From contig DASRAU010000039.1 of assembly GCA_035638075.1 (NCBI GenBank), positions 7,010 to 71,009 of the forward strand: DNA of 64,000 bases, given 5' to 3'. The stretch's first letter is position 1. Each line of letters opens with the position of its first letter. This stretch comes from Verrucomicrobiia bacterium. Lineage in GTDB: Bacteria > Acidobacteriota > Polarisedimenticolia > Gp22-AA2. The notes below the pieces were generated by a model. That model made no database searches. It was given only the letters and a program-made list of their open reading frames with translations, and had not been told where the DNA came from. Positions 7,347 through 53,738 of this stretch are shown here, in pieces. A program made the position numbers and the translations under genes.

Positions 7347-8837
7347 CTAGCGGGACTGAGGAGGGACGCCGACACGCACCGCCGCCTCCTCGGGGATGGG
7401 GACCGGATACTCGTTGGTGTAGCAGGCGGTGCAGAACCCCTTCGCCCCACCCGCCGCCCGCGCCATGCCCTCGAGCGACAGGTAGCCGAGGGAATCGGCC
7501 TCGATGAAGCGGCGGATCTCCTCGACCGTGTGGTTCGCGGCGATGAGCTCCTTGCGGCGCGGGGTGTCCACGCCGTAGTAGCAGGGGCCGACGGTCGGGG
7601 CGCAGGAGATCCGCATGTGGACCTCGCGCGCGCCGGCCCCGCGCACCATGGCGACGATCTTGCGGCTCGTCGTCCCCCGCACGATCGAGTCGTCGATGAG
7701 CACGACGCGGCGTCCCTCCAGGAGCCGCCGCACCGGGTTGAGCTTCAGCTTGACGCCGAAGTGCCGGATCGCCTGGCGCGGCTCGATGAAGGTGCGGCCG
7801 ATGTAATGGTTGCGCACGAAGCCGAACTCGAGCGGCAGCTTCGACGCCTCGGCGAAGCCGAGCGCGGCGTAGACGCCGGAGTCCGGGATCGGCACCACGA
7901 CGTCCGCCTCGACCGGCTGCTCGCGCGCCAGCTCGCGGCCGAACGCCTTGCGCACCTCGTGCACGCTGCGGCCGAAGACGAACGAGTCGGGGCGCGAGAA
8001 GTAGACGTGCTCGAAGATGCACGCTGCCTGCGGGGCGGCCGGGAACGGCCGGTACGACTTCACCCCCTGGGCGCTGATGACCACCATCTCGCCGGGATCG
8101 ACCTCGCGCACGAAGGTGCCGTCGATGAGGTCGAGGGCGCACGATTCGCTGGTCAGCACGTGGGCGCTGCCGGCCTGCCCGAGGGCCATCGGCCGGAAGC
8201 CGCGCGGGTCGCGCACGCCGATGATCCGGTCCGGCGTGATGAAGATCAGCGAGTAGGCCCCCTGCACCTGCTTGAGCGCGTGGACGATGGCCGCCTCGAG
8301 ATCGGCCTGCGGCGCCTTGGCGATGAGGTGCAGGATCACTTCGGTGTCCGACGAGGACCGGAAAATCGATCCCTGCGCCTCGAGGTCGTGGCGGAGCTGG
8401 TCGGCGTTGACCAGGTTGCCGTTGTGCCCGATGGCGATCTCCCCCTTGTGGGAGTCGATGCGGAACGGCTGCGCATTGAGGATCGCGCTCTTCCCCGCCG
8501 TCGAGTAGCGCACGTGGCCGATGGCGTGCCGCCCCTTCAGGCGCAGGAGGTTCTTGCGCTTGAAGACCCGGCCGACCTGCCCCATCCCCTTCTCCTCGAA
8601 GAGGCGCTCGCCGTTGCTCGAGACGATGCCGGCCGACTCCTGCCCGCGGTGCTGCAGTGCGTGCAGACCGAGGTAGACGAGGTTGGCCGCCTCGGGGTGC
8701 CCGAAGACGCCGAAGACGCCGCATTCGTCGTGGAAGCGGTCGTCTTCCGCCGCGGTCAGGCCCACCCGTGGTAAGGGAGTCGAAGAGGGCTTCTGCTTCA
8801 TTGGATCCATGCACCGGCCCGCATGAGGGAGCGACAT
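7347..8837 (-). CDS. purF: Amidophosphoribosyltransferase
   Basis: N-terminal CGVFGVFG catalytic Cys after a short leader, a glutamine amidotransferase class-II domain and a PRTase domain. The exact start is ambiguous (MDPMKQK or MKQK). Confidence 0.92.
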   Translation of the reverse strand: MSLPHAGRCMDPMKQKPSSTPLPRVGLTAAEDDRFHDECGVFGVFGHPEAANLVYLGLHALQHRGQESAGIVSSNGERLFEEKGMGQVGRVFKRKNLLRLKGRHAIGHVRYSTAGKSAILNAQPFRIDSHKGEIAIGHNGNLVNADQLRHDLEAQGSIFRSSSDTEVILHLIAKAPQADLEAAIVHALKQVQGAYSLIFITPDRIIGVRDPRGFRPMALGQAGSAHVLTSESCALDLIDGTFVREVDPGEMVVISAQGVKSYRPFPAAPQAACIFEHVYFSRPDSFVFGRSVHEVRKAFGRELAREQPVEADVVVPIPDSGVYAALGFAEASKLPLEFGFVRNHYIGRTFIEPRQAIRHFGVKLKLNPVRRLLEGRRVVLIDDSIVRGTTSRKIVAMVRGAGAREVHMRISCAPTVGPCYYGVDTPRRKELIAANHTVEEIRRFIEADSLGYLSLEGMARAAGGAKGFCTACYTNEYPVPIPEEAAVRVGVPPQSR

Positions 8838-8903
8838 TATAACCTCCGCGTCAAGCTGGCCGATCTGCCCTGAGGCCGGCGCCGATTCCCCGGGGCCACG
8901 CGG

Positions 8904-9815
8904 CTAGCGCCAGTCGTCCACGAGCCAGCGGGATCCTTTCTTCACCAGCGTCAGGGTGCGCGGCGTTCCGTCGAGCGGCCCGGGGCGGCCGGAGACCACG
9001 TCCACCAGGCTCACCTTCGCCACCGCCCCGGTCGTGCCGGACGGATCGAGGGACTGGATGCGGAAGGCGGCGTGGCGCTTGCCTTCCGCCGGGGTGAACA
9101 GACCCTCCAGGCCCGACCCTTTCGCCTCGACCTTCTTCAGGAAGGAATCGGTGAAGAGCGTGCGCGCCGTCGCCAGGTCCCGCTGGCGCCAGGAGCGCAG
9201 CAGCATGCGCAGGGTGGTGACCCCGGGCACGGCGTCCTTCATCCTGAGGTTCTCCGAGCCGGTCTTCGTGAGCGAGCCGACACGCCAGGGTCCGGTCGGG
9301 TCGCGCTGCAGGCGGGCGGTCTCGCTGCGCTGCTCCACCGCTTCCCCCTGGTCTTCCCACAGGGTCCTGATGCCGGCGTTGACGCTCATGGCCCCTGGCT
9401 TCGGCGCGGGTTCCTTGTAATCCCAGGCTGCCAGCCGTACGCCCTTGCGGCCGTTGTAGTTGACCGAGTCGTGGTCGTAGGCGGCCTTCGCCTGCGGCGT
9501 GAGGATCGACTTCAGCTCGCGGATGGTGCGGTAGTCCCGCGAGGCCATGAAGAAGGCCAGCGCCCCCGACGGCGTCTCGCCCGGGTCGGTGGCGGGTGGC
9601 ACCAGCTCTCCCTGCGGACCTTCGGGTGCTCCCGTTTCGCCGGGAGGCGGTTGCGTCGGCGGGGCGGCCGGGTTGTCCGGCGGCACGGGCGGCGGAGTCT
9701 GCGCCCCGGCCGGAGCCAGGCCAAGCAGGATCCCGAACCCCAGGACGAAGAGCAGGGAACGGCGGCGCGGTGCAGAGGACGGTCGCTGACGCTGCGCGAT
9801 GGTCATGGGTCTCAT
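8904..9815 (-). CDS. Hypothetical exported protein with a Tat-like RRRSLLF signal
   Basis: MRPMTIAQRQRPSSAPRRRSLLFVLGFGILLGLAPAGAQ, then a Pro-rich linker and a globular domain. Its start ATG overlaps the stop of the upstream HD gene (ATGA). Confidence 0.6.
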   Translation of the reverse strand: MRPMTIAQRQRPSSAPRRRSLLFVLGFGILLGLAPAGAQTPPPVPPDNPAAPPTQPPPGETGAPEGPQGELVPPATDPGETPSGALAFFMASRDYRTIRELKSILTPQAKAAYDHDSVNYNGRKGVRLAAWDYKEPAPKPGAMSVNAGIRTLWEDQGEAVEQRSETARLQRDPTGPWRVGSLTKTGSENLRMKDAVPGVTTLRMLLRSWRQRDLATARTLFTDSFLKKVEAKGSGLEGLFTPAEGKRHAAFRIQSLDPSGTTGAVAKVSLVDVVSGRPGPLDGTPRTLTLVKKGSRWLVDDWR

Positions 9816-11167
9816 TGTCTCTCGGAGGAGACGAAGGGACGAAGGCGCTTCTCGACCGCCGTCCGCATCTCTCCGGGGAAGCACAGCCTGTGGATCTGTC
9901 TCGGCTCGTTGCGGATCGAATCGATGAGCGGAGAGATGGTCCGCTCCGACATGTAGCCGGCGATGGCGCCGCCCCGCGACAGGCCGATGTCCTCGGGCGC
10001 GCGCCCGAGCCGGTCGGAGTAGGCGAGGTCACGGTACGGCAGGTCGGTGGCGTCGTCCTCGAGCAGGTAGTAGCGCGGGTCGAGGCGTCGCGCGCGGAAC
10101 AGCTCCTCGAGATCGCTCAGCGCCGCGCCCCAGGCGCGGTTGCCGGTGTCCGGGCGCAGGCGCACGGTCTTGAACAGCCGGCGCCGCGTGATCCGGTCGC
10201 ACAGGTCGCGCAGGATCGGATCGATGCGCCCGGCGGGAGCCGCGGCCCACTCCTGGAAGGCGGACAGGAACAGCCAGTCGTCGAGGCGCAGATAGTCCTC
10301 GGTGGACAGGTCGCCGCCGGTCTCGATGAGACGGCGGATCGGCGCCGGGCACGGCTCCGGCACCCGCCCTCCGTCGCGCGACGCGTCCACCAGCCGCTGC
10401 AGGGCCGTGCGGATCATCTGCTCGGCCGCGCGCGCGGTCTTGTGGTAGTAGACCTGCTGGTACATGAGGTAGCGGGCGATGACGAACTGCTCCGCCGCGT
10501 GATAGCCCTTGGCGGCGTTGAGCGCCAGGCGCAGGTCACCGTCCCGCCCGCGGCGCGCCAATCTCAGGTTGATCAGGATCCACTCGAGATCGTACTGGCC
10601 GTAAGCCACGCCGGTCATCAACGAGTCGCGCAGCAGGTAGTCGAGCCGGTCGGCGTCGAGCTGCGACGACACGAGATCGCTCACGAAGGCCGGCCGGTAC
10701 GATCGGTCGTACACGCGCAGCACCTCTTCGGTCATGCCGGCGCGCCGCAGCAGCCGCGCCACCTCGCCCCCTTTCTGGCGGATCACCAGCTTCGTCCATT
10801 CCTCGTGGCGGCGGTCGTTGAAGACGCGCTCGTAGAGGTGCGAGAAGGGACCGTGGCCGAGATCGTGCAAAAGCGCCGCGACGATGGCGACGAGCCGCGC
10901 CCGCTCCTTCTGCTTCGGCCGGAAGGAGAGCTGGCCGTTGCGGTCGAGGGAGTCGAACATCCGCTTCGCCATCCAGGCGACGCCGACCGAATGGGTGAAG
11001 CGCGTGTGCTCGGCTCCGTGGAAGGTCAGGAAGAGCGCGCCGAGCTGGCGGATGCGCCGCAGCCGCTGGAACTCGCGCGTGTTGACGAGGTCGACGACCA
11101 GGCGTTCGCGGACAGAGTCGAACCCGATCGACCCGTGCACCGGGTCGCGCAGGTACTTTTCAGGCAT
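9812..11167 (-). CDS. HD-domain phosphohydrolase, COG1078 (dGTPase / SAMHD1-like dNTP triphosphohydrolase family)
   Basis: N-terminal KYLRDPVHGSIGFD...FQRLRRIRQLG...HTRFTHSVGV...HDLGHGPFSH matches the COG1078 HD signature. Confidence 0.85.
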   Translation of the reverse strand: MPEKYLRDPVHGSIGFDSVRERLVVDLVNTREFQRLRRIRQLGALFLTFHGAEHTRFTHSVGVAWMAKRMFDSLDRNGQLSFRPKQKERARLVAIVAALLHDLGHGPFSHLYERVFNDRRHEEWTKLVIRQKGGEVARLLRRAGMTEEVLRVYDRSYRPAFVSDLVSSQLDADRLDYLLRDSLMTGVAYGQYDLEWILINLRLARRGRDGDLRLALNAAKGYHAAEQFVIARYLMYQQVYYHKTARAAEQMIRTALQRLVDASRDGGRVPEPCPAPIRRLIETGGDLSTEDYLRLDDWLFLSAFQEWAAAPAGRIDPILRDLCDRITRRRLFKTVRLRPDTGNRAWGAALSDLEELFRARRLDPRYYLLEDDATDLPYRDLAYSDRLGRAPEDIGLSRGGAIAGYMSERTISPLIDSIRNEPRQIHRLCFPGEMRTAVEKRLRPFVSSERQ

Positions 11168-23804: not shown

Positions 23805-24260
23805 ATGATGGAACAGACGCGGCGCATCACCGTTCCCGAGGCGCGCGAGATCCTCGAGCGTGATCCGAAGGCGATCTATCTCGACGTCCGCACCGAGGAG
23901 GAGTTCGCCGACGGCCACCCGGCGCGGGCCCTCAACATCCCGGTCGGTCTCTTGAACCAGGCGACGCGCATGCTCGAGCCGAATCCCGATTTCACGCGCG
24001 TCACGGCGGGCGTCCTGCCGCGCGACACGCCGATCCTCGTCGGCTGCCGGACGGCGCCGCGCGCCGAGATGGCGGCGCAGCTGCTCGCGGCCGAAGGCTT
24101 CGCCGACGTGCGCGTCGTCTTCGGCGGCTACGCCGGCATGAGGGGCCCCGCCGGCAACCAGATGGCGGTCGGCTGGTCCCAGACCGACTACCCCCTCACC
24201 CGCGAACCGGCGCCCGGAGAGGGCTACCAGGATCTGAAGAAGAAGGCAGGCGTCGCGTGA
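23805..24260 (+). CDS. Rhodanese-domain sulfurtransferase
   Basis: Single rhodanese domain with active-site loop [13 protein letters not shown]. Divergent from copA, with only ~56 bp between the start codons. Confidence 0.8.
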
Positions 24261-25966
24261 ACGTGCGCCGGACGAGCAGGCCGCGACCGCTCGCGGTCGC
24301 GGCCATCGTCGGACTCGCGCTCGCTGCGACCCTCGTGGCCCGCAGCACCGACGCGGCCGGAAGCGCCGCCGTCGCCTCGAGCGCGGGCGGTCGCGCGCCG
24401 ACCGCCTCCACGCTGGCTCCGATCCGGCCGGAAGCGATCCGCGCGCACATGCGCTTCCTCTCCGACGGACAGCTCGAAGGGCGCGCGCCCGACAGCCGGG
24501 GCTATGCGCTGGCCGCGACGTACGTGGCGGCGCAACTCGAGGCCCTGGGCCTGCAGCCGGCCGCGGCGGGCGGCTCGTATCTGCAGAAGGTGCCCATGCG
24601 CAAGGCGACGCTCGACGAGGAGCGCTCTTCCTTCGTCCTGATCCGCGACGGCAAGGAGGAACGGCTCGACCTGCCGGGCGAATGCTTCCTCCTGCCCGAC
24701 CGCGCGCGGACCGAGACCACGGTCGAAGGTCCGGTCGTCTTCGCCGGCTTCGGGATCACCGCCCCGGAGCTGCAGCACGACGACTATGCCGGCATCGACG
24801 CGAAGGGCAAGATCGTCGCGACCGTCTGGGGCGCGCCGTCGCGATTCGAGGCGACCGAACGCGCCCACTTCTCCAGCAACCAGCTCAAGCAGGAGAATGC
24901 CGCCGCGCACGGAGCCATCGGCTACATCGCCATCATGACCCCGGACGATCTGAAGCGCTACCGCTGGGACTGGCTGCTGCCGCAGGCGCGCGCCGGCACG
25001 ATGGGCTGGCTCGACGACAACGGCACGCCGAACGACGCGGTCCCCGCGATCCGCGGCATCGGTCGCCTCAACGATGCCGGCGGCCAGCGCCTGCTGCGCG
25101 GCGCCCCGAAGTCCGCGGACGCGATCTTCGCCGCGGTGCGCGAAGGCAAGCCGCCGGTCTTCGACCTTCCCGTCAAGGCGCGCCTCAGCACCGTGTCGAA
25201 GCACAGCGGCTTCGACGGCAGCAACATCGTCGGCCTTCTCCCCGGCAGCGACGCGCGCCTGCGAGACGAGCAGGTGGTCGTCTCGGCCCATCTCGACCAC
25301 CTCGGTCTCTGCCCGCCCGTCGCGGGGGACTCCGTCTGCCACGGCGCGTACGACAACGCCTCGGGGGTGGCGGTGCTCCTCGAGCTGGCGCGCGTCTTCG
25401 CGGCGCAGCACCCGGCCCCGCGCCGGTCGCTCCTCTTCGCGGTCGTCACCGGCGAGGAGAAAGGGCTGCTCGGATCCGACTACCTGGCGCGGCACCCGGT
25501 CGGCCCGGGGACCGTCGTCGCCGACGTCAACATCGACGGCGCGCCCGGCCTCCTGTATCCGCTCGCCGACATCGTTGCGCTCGGCGCCGAGCACTCGTCG
25601 CTGCAGCAGCCCGTCGAAGAAGCGGCGCGCGCGGTCGGCTACGCCGTCAGCCCCGACCCGATGCCCGAGGAGTCGGGCTTCATCCGCAGCGACCAGTACT
25701 CGTTCGTGAGGCAGGGCGTGCCGTCGGTGTTCCTCGGCGACGGCGGGAAGAGCAGCGCCCCGGACATCGACGGCCTGGCGCTGACCCGGAAATGGGCGAC
25801 GACGCTCTACCACACGCCGGGCGACAGCATGGCGCAGAAGTTCGACTTCGACTCGGCGGCGAAAGGCGCCCGCTTCTGTGCCCTCGTCACCGAAAAGATC
25901 GCGCAGGCCCCGGCCCGTCCGACCTGGAACCGCGGCGATTTCTTCGGCGTCAAGTACGGCCGCTGA
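24257..25966 (+). CDS. Secreted M28-family aminopeptidase with PA domain
   Basis: Signal peptide. Zinc ligands HLDH, D...E and AYDNASGVAVLLELAR, typical of M28. The GTG start overlaps the rhodanese stop (GTGA). Confidence 0.85.
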   Translation: MNVRRTSRPRPLAVAAIVGLALAATLVARSTDAAGSAAVASSAGGRAPTASTLAPIRPEAIRAHMRFLSDGQLEGRAPDSRGYALAATYVAAQLEALGLQPAAAGGSYLQKVPMRKATLDEERSSFVLIRDGKEERLDLPGECFLLPDRARTETTVEGPVVFAGFGITAPELQHDDYAGIDAKGKIVATVWGAPSRFEATERAHFSSNQLKQENAAAHGAIGYIAIMTPDDLKRYRWDWLLPQARAGTMGWLDDNGTPNDAVPAIRGIGRLNDAGGQRLLRGAPKSADAIFAAVREGKPPVFDLPVKARLSTVSKHSGFDGSNIVGLLPGSDARLRDEQVVVSAHLDHLGLCPPVAGDSVCHGAYDNASGVAVLLELARVFAAQHPAPRRSLLFAVVTGEEKGLLGSDYLARHPVGPGTVVADVNIDGAPGLLYPLADIVALGAEHSSLQQPVEEAARAVGYAVSPDPMPEESGFIRSDQYSFVRQGVPSVFLGDGGKSSAPDIDGLALTRKWATTLYHTPGDSMAQKFDFDSAAKGARFCALVTEKIAQAPARPTWNRGDFFGVKYGR

Positions 25967-25984
25967 CGGCATCGGCGGCGCCCT

Positions 25985-27556
25985 GTGCTGACGACCGCGG
26001 GGCACGTCACCCAGATCGTCCTGCTGGCGCTGTTCCTGCTTCTCATCGGGCGGCCCCGCCGTCGCGCCGATCGGGACGTCGTCGACGCCGCGGGACGGGG
26101 GCGCCCGTTCGCCGTGGCGCTCGCCCTCCTGGCCGCGGTGGCGCTCCTCGGCCACCTCGAGTACTTCACGAAGAAGCACCTCAACACCCATGAGTTCCTG
26201 CACTACTTCCTGAATACCAGGTACTTCGCCGAGACCGGGTACTCCGGCCTGTACGAGGCGATCGTGGTCGCCGACTGGGAGGACGATCGCCCGTCGTACG
26301 ACCCGTCGAGCGGCGTCCGGTCGCTCACGACCTACCAGCTCGAGACGCGCGCCTCGATCCTCGAGCGCGCGGAGGAGATCAAGGCCCGCTTTCCCCCCGG
26401 CCGCTGGCGCGCCTTCAAGCACGACGTCGCCTGGTTCCGGGCGGAGGACGGCGTCCTGTGGCGCATGGGCGAATCGCTGCGGGACCACGGGTACAACGGC
26501 TCGCCGCTGGTGACCGCCGTGCTCGGCGGGATCGCGAGCCAGCCCTTTCTCCCCACGGGCGGCTTCATCCCGATGGCCTGCTGGTTCGACATCGCTCTCG
26601 TCCTCGCCGCCGGGATCCTGCTGGCGCGCCGGGTCGACGGCGCCACCGGGGCGCTCTTCGTCTTCCTGTGGGCCGTCAATCCGTTCAACGATCATGCCTA
26701 CACCGGCGGCGCGTACCTGCGATCGCTGCACCTCCTGGCGCTGCTCGCCGCCGTGATCCTGTTCACGCATCGCCGCTATGTCCTGAGCGGGGCGCTGTTC
26801 TCGGTGTCGGCTTTGCTGCGCGTTTTCCCGGGTTTTCTGCTCGCGGGACTCCTGGTGCACGACCTCCTGCGCCGAGAGCGGCGCGACCTGCTGCGGCGGC
26901 ACGCGCCGCTCTACGCTTCGGCGGCGGCCACTTCACTCGTGCTCTTCGCGATGACCTCCTTCCTGTCCACGCCGGAGCATCGCAACCCGTGGTTGGGCTT
27001 CGCGGAGAAGATGTCGCTCCACAGCCAGCGGCTGTCGCCGAATCTCCTGGGGTTGCCGTATCTCTTCTTCTACGACAGCGAGCACAACGTCCCGGCGATC
27101 GTCCATGCCCGCGAGCAGGGGCAGATGCTCAACTGGGGCGTGGAGGCCGGAAAGACCTTCGCGGCACGCCGTTCCTTCTATCTCGCGGCCGCGGCGGCCT
27201 TCGGCGCGGCGTGTCTCCTGGTACTCCGGCGGGGTTCGCCCCAAGACGGCCTGTTCGCGGGATTCGTGGCCATCTTCGCGCTCCTGCACCTGGCGCACTA
27301 CGACTACGCGATGCTCTCCCTCGTGCCGTTTCTCGCGCCCTGGCGCCGCCGGCCGATCGTCGCGGTGTCGCTTCTCTGGGTCGCCGCGGCGGCGGCGTGC
27401 CTCTTCCCGCGCCTGGCGTCGGTCCTCGACTATCGCTTCTTCGTCCTCAGCGCGATCCTCGCCCTGTTCTTCGCGCTGGTGCTGGCGCTGCGGGCGAACG
27501 AGGAGTGGCGCCCGGCGCCGGCCGTCGTCCCTCCGGAGCGCAAGCGCCGCCGCTGA
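25985..27556 (+). CDS. Polytopic membrane protein, possibly a GT-C-fold glycosyltransferase-like protein
   Basis: At least 10 predicted TM helices with a periplasmic loop FLHYFLNTRYFAETGYSGLYEAIVVADWED. No confident family assignment. Lies 18 nt downstream of the M28 peptidase gene. Confidence 0.55.
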   Translation: MLTTAGHVTQIVLLALFLLLIGRPRRRADRDVVDAAGRGRPFAVALALLAAVALLGHLEYFTKKHLNTHEFLHYFLNTRYFAETGYSGLYEAIVVADWEDDRPSYDPSSGVRSLTTYQLETRASILERAEEIKARFPPGRWRAFKHDVAWFRAEDGVLWRMGESLRDHGYNGSPLVTAVLGGIASQPFLPTGGFIPMACWFDIALVLAAGILLARRVDGATGALFVFLWAVNPFNDHAYTGGAYLRSLHLLALLAAVILFTHRRYVLSGALFSVSALLRVFPGFLLAGLLVHDLLRRERRDLLRRHAPLYASAAATSLVLFAMTSFLSTPEHRNPWLGFAEKMSLHSQRLSPNLLGLPYLFFYDSEHNVPAIVHAREQGQMLNWGVEAGKTFAARRSFYLAAAAAFGAACLLVLRRGSPQDGLFAGFVAIFALLHLAHYDYAMLSLVPFLAPWRRRPIVAVSLLWVAAAAACLFPRLASVLDYRFFVLSAILALFFALVLALRANEEWRPAPAVVPPERKRRR

Positions 27557-27559
27557 TTC

Positions 27560-28309
27560 TCAGCCGGACCCTGGGAACCTAGACGCGAGGTCGGGCGATG
27601 CGGTCGAAGACGCGGCCGCAGCGGCGGCGGCGCGATCGAGCCAGGCCGCCTTGCGGGCGATGGCGATGCCGGCGGCCAGATCGTAGACGAGGTGCACCGC
27701 CATCGCCGGCACGAGCGACCCGGTGACGGCGACGAGGGCGTGCATCACGAGGGCGAAGCCGAGGATGACGGTCGCGCTCTTCCAGCCCTGCAGCGAGTGC
27801 GCGATGGCGAAGGCGGCGGAGCACACCAGCACAGCGACGATCGCCTGTCCCGACCACCAGGTCAAAATGGCGACGCCGACGCCACGATAGGCGATCTCCT
27901 CGGCCACGGCGGCCGCCAGCGCCGCCAGGACGAACCCGCAATACTCGAGGGGACTGCGCGGAGCGATGCGGTAGACGACGAGCTTCTTGCTTTCCTCTTC
28001 GGTGCGCCAGGCCCTCGCCAGCGCGCGCAGCCCGAAGCAGATGGCCAGGGCGACCGCCGCCGCCGCGAACGCGCGCGGCCCGGCCGGGGCGAAGAACCGG
28101 AACCCGAAGCTGCGCCCCGCCAGCCAGGCGAGCAGGAGCAGCAGGGCCTGCGTGAAGAGGGTGTTGGCCCAGATCGCCAGGCGCTCGCTTCGGGCTCCCG
28201 GGCCAGGGCGTTCGAGCGCCGGCCGCATCCGCCGGCGGCTGCGCACCGCTCCCCAGGGAAGCAATCCCAGCAGGAAGGCCAGGAAGACGAGCGACGGCCC
28301 GCCCGGCAT
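27560..28309 (-). CDS. CPBP-family (CAAX/Abi) intramembrane metalloprotease
   Basis: Motifs AVAEEIAYRG (EExxxR), FAIAHSLQ (FxxxH) and HLVYD (HxxxD/N). Confidence 0.85.
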   Translation of the reverse strand: MPGGPSLVFLAFLLGLLPWGAVRSRRRMRPALERPGPGARSERLAIWANTLFTQALLLLLAWLAGRSFGFRFFAPAGPRAFAAAAVALAICFGLRALARAWRTEEESKKLVVYRIAPRSPLEYCGFVLAALAAAVAEEIAYRGVGVAILTWWSGQAIVAVLVCSAAFAIAHSLQGWKSATVILGFALVMHALVAVTGSLVPAMAVHLVYDLAAGIAIARKAAWLDRAAAAAAASSTASPDLASRFPGSG

Positions 28310-29793
28310 CAGGCCGCGACCGCCTCGGGCAGAGGCTCAGGCGCGCGACGCGGCCGGAGCGGGACGATCGCCAGGAGGATCGTCAACGCCTGCGGGATGG
28401 CGATGAGCAGCGCCAGCGCTCGCGGATCGATCGGCCAGTCGATCGCCCAGCCGATGTTGAGGCCCGCCCAGGCGAGCAGCGCCGCCGCCAGTCTCCGGCC
28501 TGTCATCTCTTCGCGCGCGGCGACGAGGGTGAGGAGCCACAGCGCCGGAAAGGGCGCGTACGCCTGGGGCAGGAAGGGACTGCGCAGCGTGGCCAGGATC
28601 AGGATCGAAAGCCACACGAGCGGCTTCTCCGCGGGCGAGAGCGTGCGCCGTGCCACGAGAACGATCACGACGAGGGCGACGATCATGTACAGGGTCCCCA
28701 CCGTCCTCATGGCGGCGAACGACGCGGGGAACCCGAACAGGCCGAGCTTGGACACCAGCCCCGGGATGGAAAAGTTGATCGCCACCGCCGCCGGGTTGCG
28801 GAACGCCGGAAAGGACTCCCCGCTCATCAGCCGCGGCAGGTGTTCGAGGAAGGCGTCGTAGGGCCCGCGACCGAACGCCAGGAACGCCGCGACGACGAAG
28901 GCAACACCGAACGCCGCCGTCACCAGCACGTCGCGCCATCGCCGCTGCGCCAGGAGGAAGACACCCAGCAGTCCCGGGTACAGCTTGCTCGCGGTGGCGA
29001 ACGCCAGGAGCGCTCCGCCGGCCGCGGTCTTCCGGCCTTCGAGCAGGACCATCGCCAGCATCGAGCCGGCGAGGATCATGCCCTGCACGTTCCCCTTCTG
29101 CAGGAAGCTCTGGGTCGGCAGCGCCAGGACGACGAGCGGAGCGAGGAGGATCGCGCGCGTCGCCTGGGGCGCGGGGAGCGCGCGGGCCACGACAACCAGC
29201 GCCGCGACGATCACGGTGATGTCGAGCGCGAACCAGAGCAGGCGCAGCCGGTCGAACTCGGGCTCGGGAGGGAGGTCCTCGCCCGACGACCAGGACAGGG
29301 CCCGCGGCAGGAGCAGGAACGGCGGCGGGTACTCGTAGACGTCCACCTTGAACGGTCCGAGCATCCGCGGCCGGCGCGGCGCCGACGGCGGATCGCTCGG
29401 AAGCGAATAGAGCGAGTCGTCGTAGACGTTCGCCCCGGTTCCGGCGACGCGCGCCGCGACCGCGTAGGCGGTCAGGCAGGAGTGCCGCACCTCCCAGTCG
29501 CTGTTCGGCACGGCCGAAAAGCCCGTGCGCGTCGGATCGACGGCGAAGACCGCGAGCCGCGCCAGGACAACGATCGCGAGCACCGCGGCCGCGCCGCCCG
29601 CGAGTCGCAGCGCCCCGGGAGCGGCGGCGGGATCGAGCGCGATCGGCGGCCGCCGCTCGCAGAGAATCGCCACCAGGGCCGCGAAGACGACGGCGGCGAC
29701 CCAGGCCGCGGTGGCCGGCGCGAAGGCCCGCACCGCGACGAAGGTGGCGATCCCCGTCGTGAGCCCGAGCGACGCGGCGATGCCGCGCCGCAT
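28309..29793 (-). CDS. DUF2029 / GT87-like integral membrane glycosyltransferase-family protein
   Basis: Start taken at [10 protein letters not shown]. The loop CLTAYAVAARVAGTGANVYDDSLY resembles the GT87/DUF2029 signature. Many TM helices. Stop/start overlaps with both neighbours. Confidence 0.65.
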   Translation of the reverse strand: MRRGIAASLGLTTGIATFVAVRAFAPATAAWVAAVVFAALVAILCERRPPIALDPAAAPGALRLAGGAAAVLAIVVLARLAVFAVDPTRTGFSAVPNSDWEVRHSCLTAYAVAARVAGTGANVYDDSLYSLPSDPPSAPRRPRMLGPFKVDVYEYPPPFLLLPRALSWSSGEDLPPEPEFDRLRLLWFALDITVIVAALVVVARALPAPQATRAILLAPLVVLALPTQSFLQKGNVQGMILAGSMLAMVLLEGRKTAAGGALLAFATASKLYPGLLGVFLLAQRRWRDVLVTAAFGVAFVVAAFLAFGRGPYDAFLEHLPRLMSGESFPAFRNPAAVAINFSIPGLVSKLGLFGFPASFAAMRTVGTLYMIVALVVIVLVARRTLSPAEKPLVWLSILILATLRSPFLPQAYAPFPALWLLTLVAAREEMTGRRLAAALLAWAGLNIGWAIDWPIDPRALALLIAIPQALTILLAIVPLRPRRAPEPLPEAVAA

Positions 29794-30170
29794 CAGTGAC
29801 CCTTGAGCCAGAAGGCCACGCCGCCGTGCCCGGAGCAGGCCCCCTGCGACTCGGCGCTCTTGCTGTAGCTGCCGTCCTTGCAGCGGGCGGTGGCCCCTTT
29901 CGGCGGCTTGCCGAACCAGGTCTTCACGCCGTCGTGCCCGGAGCAGGCTCCCTTCTTGTTCTCCGCCGTGGACCAGGTCCCGTCCTTGCAGAGGCCGGTC
30001 GCCTCGGAAGGCATCGGGCCGGCCTCGGTCGCCTTGGCGGACGCCGCCGGCTTGGCCGCATCTGCCGCGAGCGCCAGGGTCGGCCCCGCCTCGCGGAGCA
30101 CGGCGGCCGCGCCGAGCACGCCGGCCAGGCCGAGACAGAGCAGGAACGCTGAACGGCATGTTCGTGTCAT
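29793..30170 (-). CDS. Secreted protein with two tandem DUF3761 modules
   Basis: Signal peptide [23 protein letters not shown], then [27 protein letters not shown] and [26 protein letters not shown], each matching the DUF3761 CxDGxxSxS...GxCSxHGGV pattern. Confidence 0.75.
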
Positions 30171-30424
30171 CGCAGGTCCTCCCGAATGCCCACCCGACGG
30201 ACCCGCGCATGATACGCCGCCAGGGCGTCCCCCGCCCCGGGCGGTCCCCCGGTCCATCGCACCCCGATTCGTCCGCGCGAAGCGACACTTGTAGACTGCC
30301 ATGCGGCGCCGCCTCGAGCGGAACCAGCGCGAAGACCCGTCAATCGTCGTGGCACGCATTCTGCTGGGCGCGCCTTTCAAAACGCGACAATTCCTGCATG
30401 CGGGACAGTCCCGCGGGAGGCTTC

Positions 30425-31546
30425 ATGTCATTCCTCGGTGACAGGACGTCGGTGGGTTGGATGGCAGCGCGCGGTTCCGTCCGGGCGCTGGTGGCCGTGG
30501 TGATGGTTTCGGCCCTGGCGGGGCTGGCGGGCTGCTCCAGCAACGCGCCCGGCTCGGCGCGCACGACCGAGGAGCTCCTCGGCCAGCTGCACGACGATCG
30601 CGAAGCGATCGATCACGCCTCGGACCAGATGATGCAGCGGATCGAGATCTTCAACTCGACCCGCAAGCCCGGCGAGGCGACCCTGCAGTTCGCCGAGCTC
30701 TTCGCCCAGGACCTGAACCCGGAGCAGAAGGACATCCTCAACAAGATGGTCGAGCAGGAGAAGGACGTCTCCTACAAGTCCCTCCTGACGAAGATCATCG
30801 ACGACCGGAACACCATCCGCGACCTGCAGGACAAGATGGCGCACGCGGAGCAGTCGCTGCCGGACCAGTTCGTCATCGCGAAGCGAGGCGACAAGCACCG
30901 GACGCTGGCGCTCCGTTACCTGACGCAGGAGGCGAAGCTCGACGAAGCCAAGGCGCGCGAGGTGATGCGGCAGTCGGACCAGACCGACGAGCTGGTGCCG
31001 GGGAACAAGGTGTGGTTCTTCTACAACCCGAAGGACGACAGCTTCCGCACCTACGTCACCCGCGGCGAGGCGCTGCAGACCCCCGTCATGGTGCGCCGCG
31101 CCCAGAAGAAGGAGCTCCTCGCCGAGCGTGACGGCGCCCGCACCGAGCGGGACGCCGCGCAGCAGCAGGCCGCCCGGAAGGAGCAGGAGCGCGCCGCGAT
31201 CGAGGCCGAGATGCACACCCGCGAGAACTCCGTCTACTACCACGCCGCCAGCAACACCAGCCTGAAGGAGAGCGGCGTCCTGAGCCCCATCACGAGCAAG
31301 ATCCAGGACGTCAAGACCATCGGCTACGACCAGTCGGTCGACCTGCGCAGCACGACCACGATCGATCTGGTGCCGGAGCGCTACGGCCTGCAGCAGATCC
31401 GCTCGATCCGGGTGCTGCCGAACATCTACCAGGAAGGGCGCGACTACAGGGTGGAGACGACCGACGACTACAAGAGCGCCCGCGTCGTGCTGCTCGATCC
31501 GGAGGTCTTCAAGGGGAAGGAGCTCCTGCTCGCCGTCAGCCGCTGA
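30425..31546 (+). CDS. Hypothetical lipoprotein with a charged coiled-coil segment
   Basis: Lipobox LAGC after a hydrophobic leader. Start ambiguous among three Met codons (30398, 30425 or 30461). No known domain. Confidence 0.55.
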   Translation: MSFLGDRTSVGWMAARGSVRALVAVVMVSALAGLAGCSSNAPGSARTTEELLGQLHDDREAIDHASDQMMQRIEIFNSTRKPGEATLQFAELFAQDLNPEQKDILNKMVEQEKDVSYKSLLTKIIDDRNTIRDLQDKMAHAEQSLPDQFVIAKRGDKHRTLALRYLTQEAKLDEAKAREVMRQSDQTDELVPGNKVWFFYNPKDDSFRTYVTRGEALQTPVMVRRAQKKELLAERDGARTERDAAQQQAARKEQERAAIEAEMHTRENSVYYHAASNTSLKESGVLSPITSKIQDVKTIGYDQSVDLRSTTTIDLVPERYGLQQIRSIRVLPNIYQEGRDYRVETTDDYKSARVVLLDPEVFKGKELLLAVSR

Positions 31547-48869: not shown

Positions 48870-49561
48870 CGCGATTCCTCCTGAGCCGGCGCTCCCGGGA
48901 TCGGCACGCCCGCGGGCAGCTTCGGCGGCCAGACGCGGTGGCCGAAGCCGATGCCGACGTGGAAGAGGTCCTGCGAGCGAGTGCCGATGCCGAAGTCGTG
49001 CTCGACGCCGGCGGTGAGCTGCACGTGCATGCCGAACCAGAGGATCCCCTCGACGCCGGGACCGACGAACCCGCCGAAGCCCTCGTGCGGCGACTCGGTG
49101 CGGTATTCGAAGCCATGGTTGATCAGGAGGCCGAGCCCGCCCCACTTCCTGAACCACGGGATGGCGGTGAGCTGGATGCCGATGCCGTAGACATCGAGAT
49201 CGCCTCCCTGCTGGAACGACAACCAGGTCTCCGCCTTGCCGATGATGTGCTTGACCTGTCCCTGCGGGCCGAACGAGAAGCGGAGTCCCTTGACGTTCGT
49301 CCCGTCGGTCTCCTCCGCGAACGTGGGCGTGAGGGAGAAGAACCCGCCGAACTGGTAGTCGTGCCACCAGTCGGCCGGCTTCTGACCGGCCTCGGGCTCG
49401 GGCACCGGGTCGACTGCCGGGGTCGGACTCGCCGGGATTTCGCCCGCTCCGACGAGCCCGAACGGGGCTGCCGCAAGCAGAAGCGCAACCGCTGAAAGGG
49501 ACGATTTCCGAGGTGACAGGCTGCGCCTGACGTGGCGCTCCTGATTTCCTGACATCCGCAT
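48866..49561 (-). CDS. Hypothetical secreted beta-rich protein (possibly outer-membrane beta-barrel-like)
   Basis: Signal peptide. Gly/aromatic-rich alternating pattern that ends with an aromatic-rich segment. Confidence 0.5.
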   Translation of the reverse strand: MRMSGNQERHVRRSLSPRKSSLSAVALLLAAAPFGLVGAGEIPASPTPAVDPVPEPEAGQKPADWWHDYQFGGFFSLTPTFAEETDGTNVKGLRFSFGPQGQVKHIIGKAETWLSFQQGGDLDVYGIGIQLTAIPWFRKWGGLGLLINHGFEYRTESPHEGFGGFVGPGVEGILWFGMHVQLTAGVEHDFGIGTRSQDLFHVGIGFGHRVWPPKLPAGVPIPGAPAQEESR

Positions 49562-49654
49562 CCAACCTCCCCTGACGGGCGAACGCCCTCGCTGGCACTA
49601 CCGTTGCGACACGTTCTGATCGCGATGCACCGTTTTCAACGAAAGGAGTGTGCC

Positions 49655-50404
49655 ATGCGAAAGCTGATGTTCGTACCCGCTCTCCTGGTGGCCGGGCTGC
49701 TGGCCGCGCCGCTGGTCACGGCCAACGACAAAGACAAGACGTATGAGGAGAAGGACAAGAAAGAGGTGAAGGTGTCGGCCGAGGACAAGCAGAAGGCCGA
49801 GGCGCGTCTCACGGAGGCCGAAGAGGTCCTGAAGGCTTCGGTGACGGCTCCCGATCAGGGGATTCCGAAGAACCTGCTCGAGAGGGCCGAGTGCGTCGGC
49901 GTGTTCCCCGGCGTGAAGAAGGGCGCTCTCATCGTCGGCGGCGCCGGCGGCAAGGGCGTCTTCACCTGCAAGAACGGCAACGGGATGACCGGGCCGGCCT
50001 TCTTCAAGATCGGCGGCCCCAGCATCGGCTGGCAGGCCGGCGTCGAGTCGGCCGACCTCGTCCTGCTGATCATGAACAAGGAAGGGATCGACAAGCTCCT
50101 GACCGACAAGTTCAAGATCGGCGCGGATGCGACGGCCGCTGCGGGCCCGGTGGGCCGCAACACCCAGGCTTCCACCGACGCGCTGCTGCACTCGCAGATC
50201 CTGTCCTGGTCGCGCACGCGCGGCCTGTTCGCGGGCATCTCCCTCGAGGGGATGGTCATGACGCAGGACAAGGAGGACAACGCGTCCATCTACGGCAAGG
50301 CGGTCGAGGCGCGTGAGATCCTGACCACCGACACGCTGCAGGTCCCTCAAGTCGCCAAGTCGTTCGTGAAGACCACGGAGCAGTACGTCCGGCCGGTGTC
50401 GTGA
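49655..50404 (+). CDS. Ysc84 / DUF500 (SH3YL1-like lipid-binding) domain exported protein, paralog 1
   Basis: RBS AAAGGAG. Signal peptide. Conserved CVGVFPGVKKGALIVGGAGGKGVF...GPVG...SWSRTRGLFAGISLEG blocks of the Ysc84 family. Confidence 0.8.
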   Translation: MRKLMFVPALLVAGLLAAPLVTANDKDKTYEEKDKKEVKVSAEDKQKAEARLTEAEEVLKASVTAPDQGIPKNLLERAECVGVFPGVKKGALIVGGAGGKGVFTCKNGNGMTGPAFFKIGGPSIGWQAGVESADLVLLIMNKEGIDKLLTDKFKIGADATAAAGPVGRNTQASTDALLHSQILSWSRTRGLFAGISLEGMVMTQDKEDNASIYGKAVEAREILTTDTLQVPQVAKSFVKTTEQYVRPVS

Positions 50405-52789: not shown

Positions 52790-52988
52790 GACACACCTCG
52801 ATTCGCATTCACCTCGTGCATGCGACGTGCCATCGAAGACGCGCCCCCGGCCATCCTCACCCGCGCGGACCGATCGGCCGTCGGCCCATGACTGACAGGC
52901 CTTTGCGGGGAACTGGCGATGGAGACACAGCGCCATCCGGCGCACAGTGGCGATGACGAAAGAATCGAACCAAGAAGGGAGTCCACGC

Positions 52989-53738
52989 ATGCGCAAAACG
53001 ATCCGAATCCTTCCCGCTGTTCTCGTCGCCGGCCTGCTCGCCACGCCGGTGATGCTGCGGGCGGGCGACACGCACACGAGCGACGACGGGTACAAGTCCA
53101 GCCAGGCGAGCAAGTCCGCGAAGAAGGACGCCAAGACCGCGGCGAAGCTGTCCGACGCCGAAGCGGTGCTCAAGGCGGCGGCCGAGTCGAAAGACGAAGG
53201 CATTCCGCGCGACCTGCTCGAGAAGGCGAAGTGCGTCGGCGTCTTCCCGAGCTTCAAGAAGGTCGCCCTCGGAGTCGGCGGCGAAGGCGGCAAGGGCGTC
53301 TTCACGTGCCGCACCGACCACGGCATGAGCGGCCCGGCCATCTACAAGATCGGCGGCGGCAGCGTCGGCTGGCAGGCCGGCGTCAAGGAGGCCGACCTGG
53401 TGCTCCTCGTCATGGACGACGAAGCGATGAACAAGCTCCTGAACGACGATCACGTCGAGATCGGCACCGACGTCTCGGCCACGGCCGGTCCGGTCGGGCA
53501 CGATGCGAAGATGACCGACACCCAGTCGAGCGCTCAGCTTCTGGCGTGGTCACGGACGCACGGCGCCTTTGCGGGGGCGTCCCTCGATGGCCTGGGGCTG
53601 AAGCAGGACGACGACGACAACGCGGAGCTCTACAACAAGACCGTCGGGGCCAAGGAAATCCTGACCAGCGACACGGACACCCTTCCGGTGCCGCAGGTGG
53701 CGCAGTCCTTCGTGAAGACGACCGAGCAGTACATGTAG
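52989..53738 (+). CDS. Ysc84 / DUF500 domain exported protein, paralog 2
   Basis: About 60% identical to the gene at 49655 and carries the same conserved blocks. Confidence 0.8.
   Translation: MRKTIRILPAVLVAGLLATPVMLRAGDTHTSDDGYKSSQASKSAKKDAKTAAKLSDAEAVLKAAAESKDEGIPRDLLEKAKCVGVFPSFKKVALGVGGEGGKGVFTCRTDHGMSGPAIYKIGGGSVGWQAGVKEADLVLLVMDDEAMNKLLNDDHVEIGTDVSATAGPVGHDAKMTDTQSSAQLLAWSRTHGAFAGASLDGLGLKQDDDDNAELYNKTVGAKEILTSDTDTLPVPQVAQSFVKTTEQYM

Follow-up and report, generated by a model that had tools for sequence, protein, structure and literature searches.

Do two gene sets that meet tail to tail form a single envelope system, or are they ordinary neighbors? This question is raised by positions 23,805 to 30,170 of a 64-kb stretch of DNA from contig DASRAU010000039.1 (the whole stretch is called the window here; G+C ~71%). 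A plus-strand unit, rhodanese-M28-GT87b, faces a minus-strand unit, DUF3761-GT87a-CPBP, where GT87a and GT87b are two large membrane proteins of the PimE-like GT-C type. An earlier reading of the sequence (the original prediction) took the two convergent sets together as one surface-glycosylation or processing system. That reading was not supported: the partners occur together only in a narrow clade, and other glycan-pathway genes (GT2, flippase, polymerase, polyprenyl-phosphate-mannose synthase) were not found among the window's larger open reading frames (ORFs). Our results fit best with two ordinary convergent operons whose gene order was inherited in one Polarisedimenticolia lineage, with two independent GT-C enzymes and no dedicated system. 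We regard this explanation as reasonably probable.

The genes and intervals concerned are as follows (window coordinates).

23805..24260, plus strand: rhodanese-domain protein, 151 amino acids (aa), first gene of the plus-strand unit (NCBIfam rhodanese-type matches)
24257..25966, plus strand: M28 zinc peptidase, putatively secreted, with a PA-like insert, 569 aa (Pfam PF04389)
25985..27556, plus strand: GT87b, PimE-like GT-C of a subfamily without annotation, 523 aa (sub-threshold Pfam GT87 match; fold; profile)
27557..27559: gap of 3 nucleotides (nt) between the convergent stop codons (sequence)
27560..28309, minus strand: CPBP (Rce1-like) glutamic intramembrane protease, 249 aa (Pfam PF02517; motifs)
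28309..29793, minus strand: GT87a, PimE-like GT-C, 494 aa (Pfam GT87, PF09594; fold; family profile)
29793..30170, minus strand: exported protein with two DUF3761 repeats, 125 aa (Pfam PF12587)
30171..30427: divergent intergenic region, presumed promoter of the tricistron (no co-directional gene upstream; next gene on the opposite strand)
30428-31546, plus strand: protein of ~372 aa, divergent from the tricistron (ORF)

Conservation of the gene neighborhood

We found GT87a together with CPBP, usually with DUF3761 as well, only where GT87a was at least 67-73% identical to that of the window, in Polarisedimenticolia relatives. Locus L006 (GT87a 88% identical) has full synteny with the window. 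L007/L008 (73%) keeps DUF3761-GT87a-CPBP and M28-rhodanese, with an unrelated 174-aa ORF in place of GT87b. In L073 (67%), rhodanese-M28-GT87b faces CPBP-GT87a. The DUF3761 gene, present in L006, L007 and L078, is missing from L073, where the intergenic region is 290 bp and gave no tblastn match. Orthologs of the M28 peptidase at 75-90% identity were found only in L006, L007 and L073, and all three retain the rhodanese-M28 adjacency. The partners are absent from L009 (60%), a Polarisedimenticolaceae metagenome-assembled genome (MAG) in which the GT87a ortholog runs into an MFS transporter gene, stop and start overlapping by 4 nt (8001-10612). No partner is present in L001, L002 or L004 (~55%).

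Scanning a genome collection with GT87a gave 63 loci. In tblastn searches, CPBP, DUF3761, M28 and rhodanese were near GT87a at one of them (L010, the same contig as L006, 88% identical), and none of the four was detected at the other 62. Pfam searches of 144 flanking ORFs from 38 loci placed neither Rce1-like nor DUF3761 among the best 25 families with at least two ORFs. When neighbors were clustered across 60 GT87a loci, the only recurrent ones were Ser/Thr kinases, PadR with MacB/FtsX permeases, and histidine kinases. We rejected these as meaningful partners because each of these families has many paralogues in the phyla concerned.

The CPBP orthogroup is small (41 matches). Orthologs with at least 56% identity probably share contigs with GT87a, and we verified this directly in three cases. 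Those of 45-52% identity (L075, L076, L077) have no GT87 neighbor. The M28 gene near a Gemmatimonadetes CPBP ortholog was set aside; its product is only 30% identical to the window M28 and is not an ortholog. GT87b orthologs at ~55% identity stand alone, beside ammonium transporter and LemA/M48 genes.

For DUF3761, metagenomes were scanned with a pattern from a 9-sequence alignment, a 29-sequence alignment being too divergent. This gave 80 loci, 48 of them with at least 1 kb downstream. GT87a, CPBP or GT87b was nearby at a single locus (L078, from the same lineage), and 79/80 had none of them. Among these 80 loci, a DUF3761 stop overlapping a GT-C start was thus seen in this lineage only.

The expectation that DUF3761-GT87-CPBP would be conserved in relatives therefore fails past a narrow clade: 62 GT87a loci, three CPBP loci and 79 DUF3761 loci lack the arrangement. 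We conclude that the evidence does not support a general DUF3761-GT87-CPBP "system". Synteny across the clade spans ~19 kb and continues through genes for UDG, saccharopine dehydrogenase, Cu-ATPase, a histidine kinase and the 372-aa protein. Because these genes are unrelated to the tricistron, adjacency within the clade is what common descent would be expected to leave.

Gene junctions and the GT87a-CPBP pair

All five genes of the original prediction were present at the positions it gave, with the domains it named (M28, CPBP, GT87 and 2×DUF3761 by Pfam), the match of the second membrane protein being weak. It had overlooked the rhodanese gene (23805-24260). The start codons match homologue alignments and 100%-identical database entries (P0121, P0195). 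The six genes are without paralogues in the rest of the window.

Within bacterial operons, genes most often overlap by 1 or 4 nt. At both tricistron junctions (...CAC TGATG CGG... and ...GCC TGATG CCG...), stop and start share TGATG, a 1-nt overlap. The chain of overlaps that had been described for the tricistron is real, then, except that the junction read as a 4-nt ATGA is also TGATG. The sole 4-nt overlap here (GTGA) joins the rhodanese stop to the M28 start, and 18 nt separate M28 from GT87b. Such overlaps support co-transcription but are not unusual, given how common they are. Judged from this spacing, each unit is probably co-transcribed internally. The tricistron had also been said to be obligatorily co-expressed. 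Its tight packing and its retention in close relatives agree with co-expression; a functional dependency does not follow.

The 3 nt between the convergent stops (27557-27559) are as originally described. A terminator scan found no terminator-like site in this gap, and the RNA fold energy of the convergent junction was no better than that of shuffles (z -0.54). No sigma-70 consensus was found in 30171..30427, a result that is uninformative for this phylum.

Even without a general system, GT87a and CPBP might cooperate as a clade-restricted module in which CPBP would process or stabilize the transferase or its substrate, with DUF3761 as an optional periplasmic accessory. Several observations favor this and weigh against simple inheritance of gene order. 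All clade members examined have GT87a and CPBP close together (1-nt overlap, ~8 nt, 30 nt), at no more than 30 nt in the window, L006, L007, L073 and L078, and the TGATG overlap recurs at both junctions of the tricistron. Nine further CPBP orthologs probably lie on the same contigs as GT87a, which is compatible with selection for co-expression. A very divergent single CPBP or DUF3761 could have been missed by tblastn or by the listing of the best 25 Pfam families.

The clade also has its own form of GT87a. Seven residues are inserted in its first periplasmic loop (…SSGEDLPPEP…, residues ~167-176, 29266-29295). The insertion is present in 5 of 32 aligned GT87a sequences (the window, P0003, P0007, P0011 and P0013). 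A CPBP neighbor is confirmed for P0003, P0007 and P0013 and inferred for P0011. The insertion thus belongs to exactly this clade and may point to a different partner or substrate.

However, all carriers of the pair are close relatives that share the ~19 kb of synteny, and past the clade neither GT87a nor CPBP orthologs retain the partner. In addition, the overlap of GT87a with an MFS transporter gene in L009 means that coupling to a downstream gene is not specific to CPBP. We consider cooperation of this kind unlikely, although it is the main alternative. It is also conceivable, but improbable, that the PimE-like GT-C of this clade gained dedicated partners, so that GT87a, CPBP and DUF3761 would make up a periplasmic modification module with the insertion marking the change. 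For example, glycosylation of DUF3761 might depend on GT87a, or CPBP might control the activity of the transferase. If true, the module would provide first functions for DUF3761 and for bacterial CPBP proteins outside immunity and sorting.

Fold and active site of the two membrane proteins

Score, fold and donor-site residues all place GT87a in the Pfam/CAZy GT87 family. It matched Pfam PF09594 with 80.5 bits (cut-off 25; E 2e-22). AlphaFold models of GT87a and GT87b were built from family alignments, and that of GT87a had a pLDDT (predicted local distance difference test) of 88 and a pTM (predicted template modeling score) of 0.90. Its top fold match in the PDB by Foldseek was PimE (9dm5; E 6.8e-6, target TM-score 0.65), followed by GPI-MT-I, ALG3 and PIG-U. 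The family profile matched the PDB sequences of GPI-MT-I (E 2.7e-5) and PimE (E 1.9e-4). The profile was needed for this, since phmmer with the single GT87a sequence gave no match among PDB sequences.

PimE (Rv1159 family; GT87) is a polyprenyl-phosphate-mannose-dependent alpha-1,2-mannosyltransferase of mycobacterial phosphatidylinositol mannoside (PIM) synthesis (PDB 9dm5; PMC12041525). It holds the donor phosphate with K195 and H322, and its catalytic base is D58, where the first juxtamembrane helix has its tip (PMC12041525). That structure paper was the only relevant item in a literature search on DUF3761, DUF2029, GT87, and CPBP plus glycosyltransferase.

In the profile alignment, PimE K195 corresponds to the invariant K270 of GT87a, and PimE G162-Q163 to the invariant G234-N235, Q to N being a conservative change. 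The first periplasmic loop of GT87a has invariant E101, D151 and E154, and D151-x3-Y155 is spaced like D58-x3-Y62 of PimE. The residues of PimE that contact the acceptor, D160 and Y161, are replaced by Q232 and K233 in the same alignment, so an acceptor other than that of PimE is expected. From these residues we suggest that the acceptor of GT87a probably differs from that of PimE.

There are further differences from PimE. Sequence identity is just 12-20%. At its N-terminus GT87a has two helices that PimE lacks, and its first periplasmic loop is much longer and highly conserved. Unlike the hosts of PimE, the host here is a Gram-negative-type acidobacterium that is not known to make PIMs. GT87a homologues number in the hundreds, the closest being in Candidatus Polarisedimenticolia, and Acidobacteriota, Myxococcota, Eisenbacteria and Dormiibacterota have orthologs of 43-60% identity.

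GT87b, unlike PimE, falls under the Pfam GT87 cut-off of 25 (PF09594: 21.5 bits, E 2.3e-4), and most of its homologues have no Pfam domain. Its model (pLDDT 86, pTM 0.87) also ranked PimE first, with GPI-MT-I and ALG3 next. GT87b is best described as a sister subfamily of PimE-type GT-C enzymes that fails the Pfam cut-off.

How are the two membrane proteins related? BLASTP of GT87a against GT87b was not significant (E 0.82), but hhalign of the two family profiles gave 87.6% probability (E 3.5e-6, 203 columns) and the folds match. The relation is therefore visible only at the level of profile and structure. Several GT87a orthologs were matched by GT87b in tblastn (~1e-4). The hhalign alignment pairs SKLYPG of GT87a with LLRVFP of GT87b, which would put a nearly invariant R279 in place of the Lys (an indirect, two-step alignment). 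By their models and profiles, GT87a and GT87b are GT-C glycosyltransferases that share a PimE-like fold and are distant relatives of each other. The prediction of a common GT-C fold was thus borne out by hhalign and Foldseek. We also considered whether the two proteins might be unrelated transporters; PimE, GPI-MT-I and ALG3 lead the fold matches, no transporter is near the top, and that identity was rejected.

The next-best structural matches of both proteins are eukaryotic dolichyl-phosphate-mannose GT-C enzymes (GPI-MT-I/PIG-M and ALG3). The GT87a family has in common with GPI-MT-I, its best sequence-profile match, a K-(I/L)-Y-P motif. Unlike GT87a and GT87b, GPI-MT-I and ALG3 are eukaryotic enzymes of the endoplasmic reticulum that act on glycosylphosphatidylinositol (GPI) and N-glycan precursors, and kinship does not go beyond the fold or superfamily.

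The best structural matches (PimE, ALG3 and GPI-MT-I) use polyprenyl- or dolichyl-phosphate-mannose, so a lipid-phosphate-mannose donor, used on the periplasmic side, is most likely, given also the modeled fold and the donor-site residues. For GT87a and GT87b alike, a polyprenyl-phosphate carrier would supply the sugar, probably mannose. The sugar would then be moved to an envelope glycolipid or glycan at the periplasmic face of the inner membrane. Each GT-C orthogroup stands alone in most genomes, which argues that the core activity is independent of DUF3761, CPBP and M28. GT87a of this lineage would be co-transcribed with two neighbors, a DUF3761 protein that is exported and has two repeats and a CPBP that looks active, probably with no functional dependency between them and the transferase.

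Alternatively, the tricistron could be a protein-glycosylation cassette in which exported DUF3761 is the acceptor mannosylated by GT87a, by analogy with GT-C protein O-mannosyltransferases. In favor, the DUF3761 protein is exported and rich in Ser and Thr, and its stop codon overlaps the start of GT87a. However, the best matches of GT87a are lipid- or glycan-directed enzymes (PimE, ALG3, GPI-MT-I) and not protein O-mannosyltransferases, and L073 keeps GT87a-CPBP without DUF3761. The 62 GT87a loci past the clade lack DUF3761, and 79 DUF3761 loci lack GT87. We think it very improbable that DUF3761 would prove to be such an acceptor.

Some neighbors of the orthologs are recorded here as separate observations. 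In two Eisenbacteria loci (L001 1-4090 and L002 1-5332), the GT87a ortholog is 0.7-1.9 kb from a giant gene resembling GH94 cyclic beta-1,2-glucan synthase (2785-2870 aa). This is a possible hint at the acceptor glycan; with only these two loci, which are related and from one phylum, it may be synteny. M48 (Ste24-type) genes are directly downstream of a GT87a ortholog, and LemA-M48 genes are downstream of GT87b orthologs (L002 7678-9132; L074 10023-11551). These may echo the Rce1-type protease beside GT87a in the window, or may be coincidence. A Vicinamibacteria MAG (L058 4482-6290, 7700-8980) has a GT87b-like gene (33% identity over 228 aa, E 4e-20) ~1.4 kb upstream of the GT87a ortholog, with a Na:alanine symporter gene between the two GT-C genes. 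It is the only case of GT87a/GT87b proximity that we found outside the Polarisedimenticolia clade. Distant GT87b homologues (P0175 and P0181, 697-741 aa) carry a discoidin domain (F5/8 type C, PF00754). This domain is typically carbohydrate-binding, which fits a glycan-directed role for the GT87b family.

Partner proteins and significance

The CPBP, DUF3761 and M28 proteins are plain members of their families. CPBP matched Pfam PF02517 with 55.4 bits (cut-off 22.4; E 7.9e-15). Like other CPBP/Rce1-like proteases, it carries the complete set of three catalytic motifs, EEIAYR, FAIAH and HLVYD (EExxxR, FxxxH, HxxxN/D; here HxxxD). We tried the myxosortase-type (Mrt) sorting proteases as an identity for it. 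Scores against the NCBIfam Mrt models were far under the cut-offs (MrtS 34 vs 130 bits, MrtJ 20 vs 75, Mrt_core 20 vs 100), and the neighboring DUF3761 protein, which ends ...FWLKGH, has no C-terminal transmembrane segment or sorting tag. This identity was rejected on both grounds.

DUF3761 had been described as a duplicated, exported, Cys-containing module, and this proved correct. The protein matched Pfam PF12587 in two stretches (72.1 bits, cut-off 29; E 5.5e-20), and sequence and alignment give it a signal-peptide-like N-terminus with no lipobox. Each of its two ~32-residue repeats has a C-x14-C pair within the motif C.DG..S....GACS.HGGV. In these respects it is like many DUF3761 proteins. 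An exhaustive HMMER search found relatives in 2093 clusters, many with 2-5 repeats, so the tandem arrangement is the norm and not special to this locus.

CPBP/Abi proteins are bacteriocin immunity proteins in Firmicutes. The original prediction mentioned that CPBP proteases are often immunity or processing partners, and one could picture DUF3761, which is small and secreted and has paired cysteines, as a toxin or signal with CPBP as its immunity or processing factor. We found no sign of this. PADLOC anti-phage defence models had zero matches in the region, and no transporter or modification genes were found nearby. CPBP stays in L073, where DUF3761 is missing, and a CPBP relative was found at 0/79 other DUF3761 loci. 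A bacteriocin-like pair is the reading to which we give the least credence, and it is hardly likely at all.

The M28 protein matched Pfam PF04389 with 136 bits (cut-off 21.3; E 1.6e-39); its PA domain was weak (E 1.8e-3). The translation has a signal-like N-terminus and the metal-ligand motifs HLDH, DNASG, GEEKG, NID and HTPGD.

Other features of the window lie outside the two units. The plus-strand protein at 30428-31546 had no Pfam, NCBIfam or PADLOC match; it has a lipoprotein-like N-terminus (…LAGLAGCSS…), and its position is kept in L006, L007 and L073. Two paralogous Ysc84 (Las17-binding-like) proteins of ~280 aa are encoded on the plus strand 2.5 kb apart (49553-50401 and 52896-53735). 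The 100%-identical database entries (P0121, P0195; VFC25_15295) are labelled 'Verrucomicrobiae bacterium', and all close relatives (88-92%) are Candidatus Polarisedimenticolia, Acidobacteriota. A binning or labelling error is probable for this contig.

Nothing in the region is outside known kinds, and the importance of the finding is limited. It concerns two uncharacterised PimE-like GT-C subfamilies from Gram-negative-type soil phyla, with a fold that has been studied mainly in mycobacteria and eukaryotes. The most useful by-product is the GT87a orthogroup itself, which is very well conserved, usually stand-alone, and spans several phyla. It is present in cultured strains (Acidobacteriaceae KBS 83 and KBS 89, and Tunturiibacter gelidiferens), so genetics could identify its envelope product.

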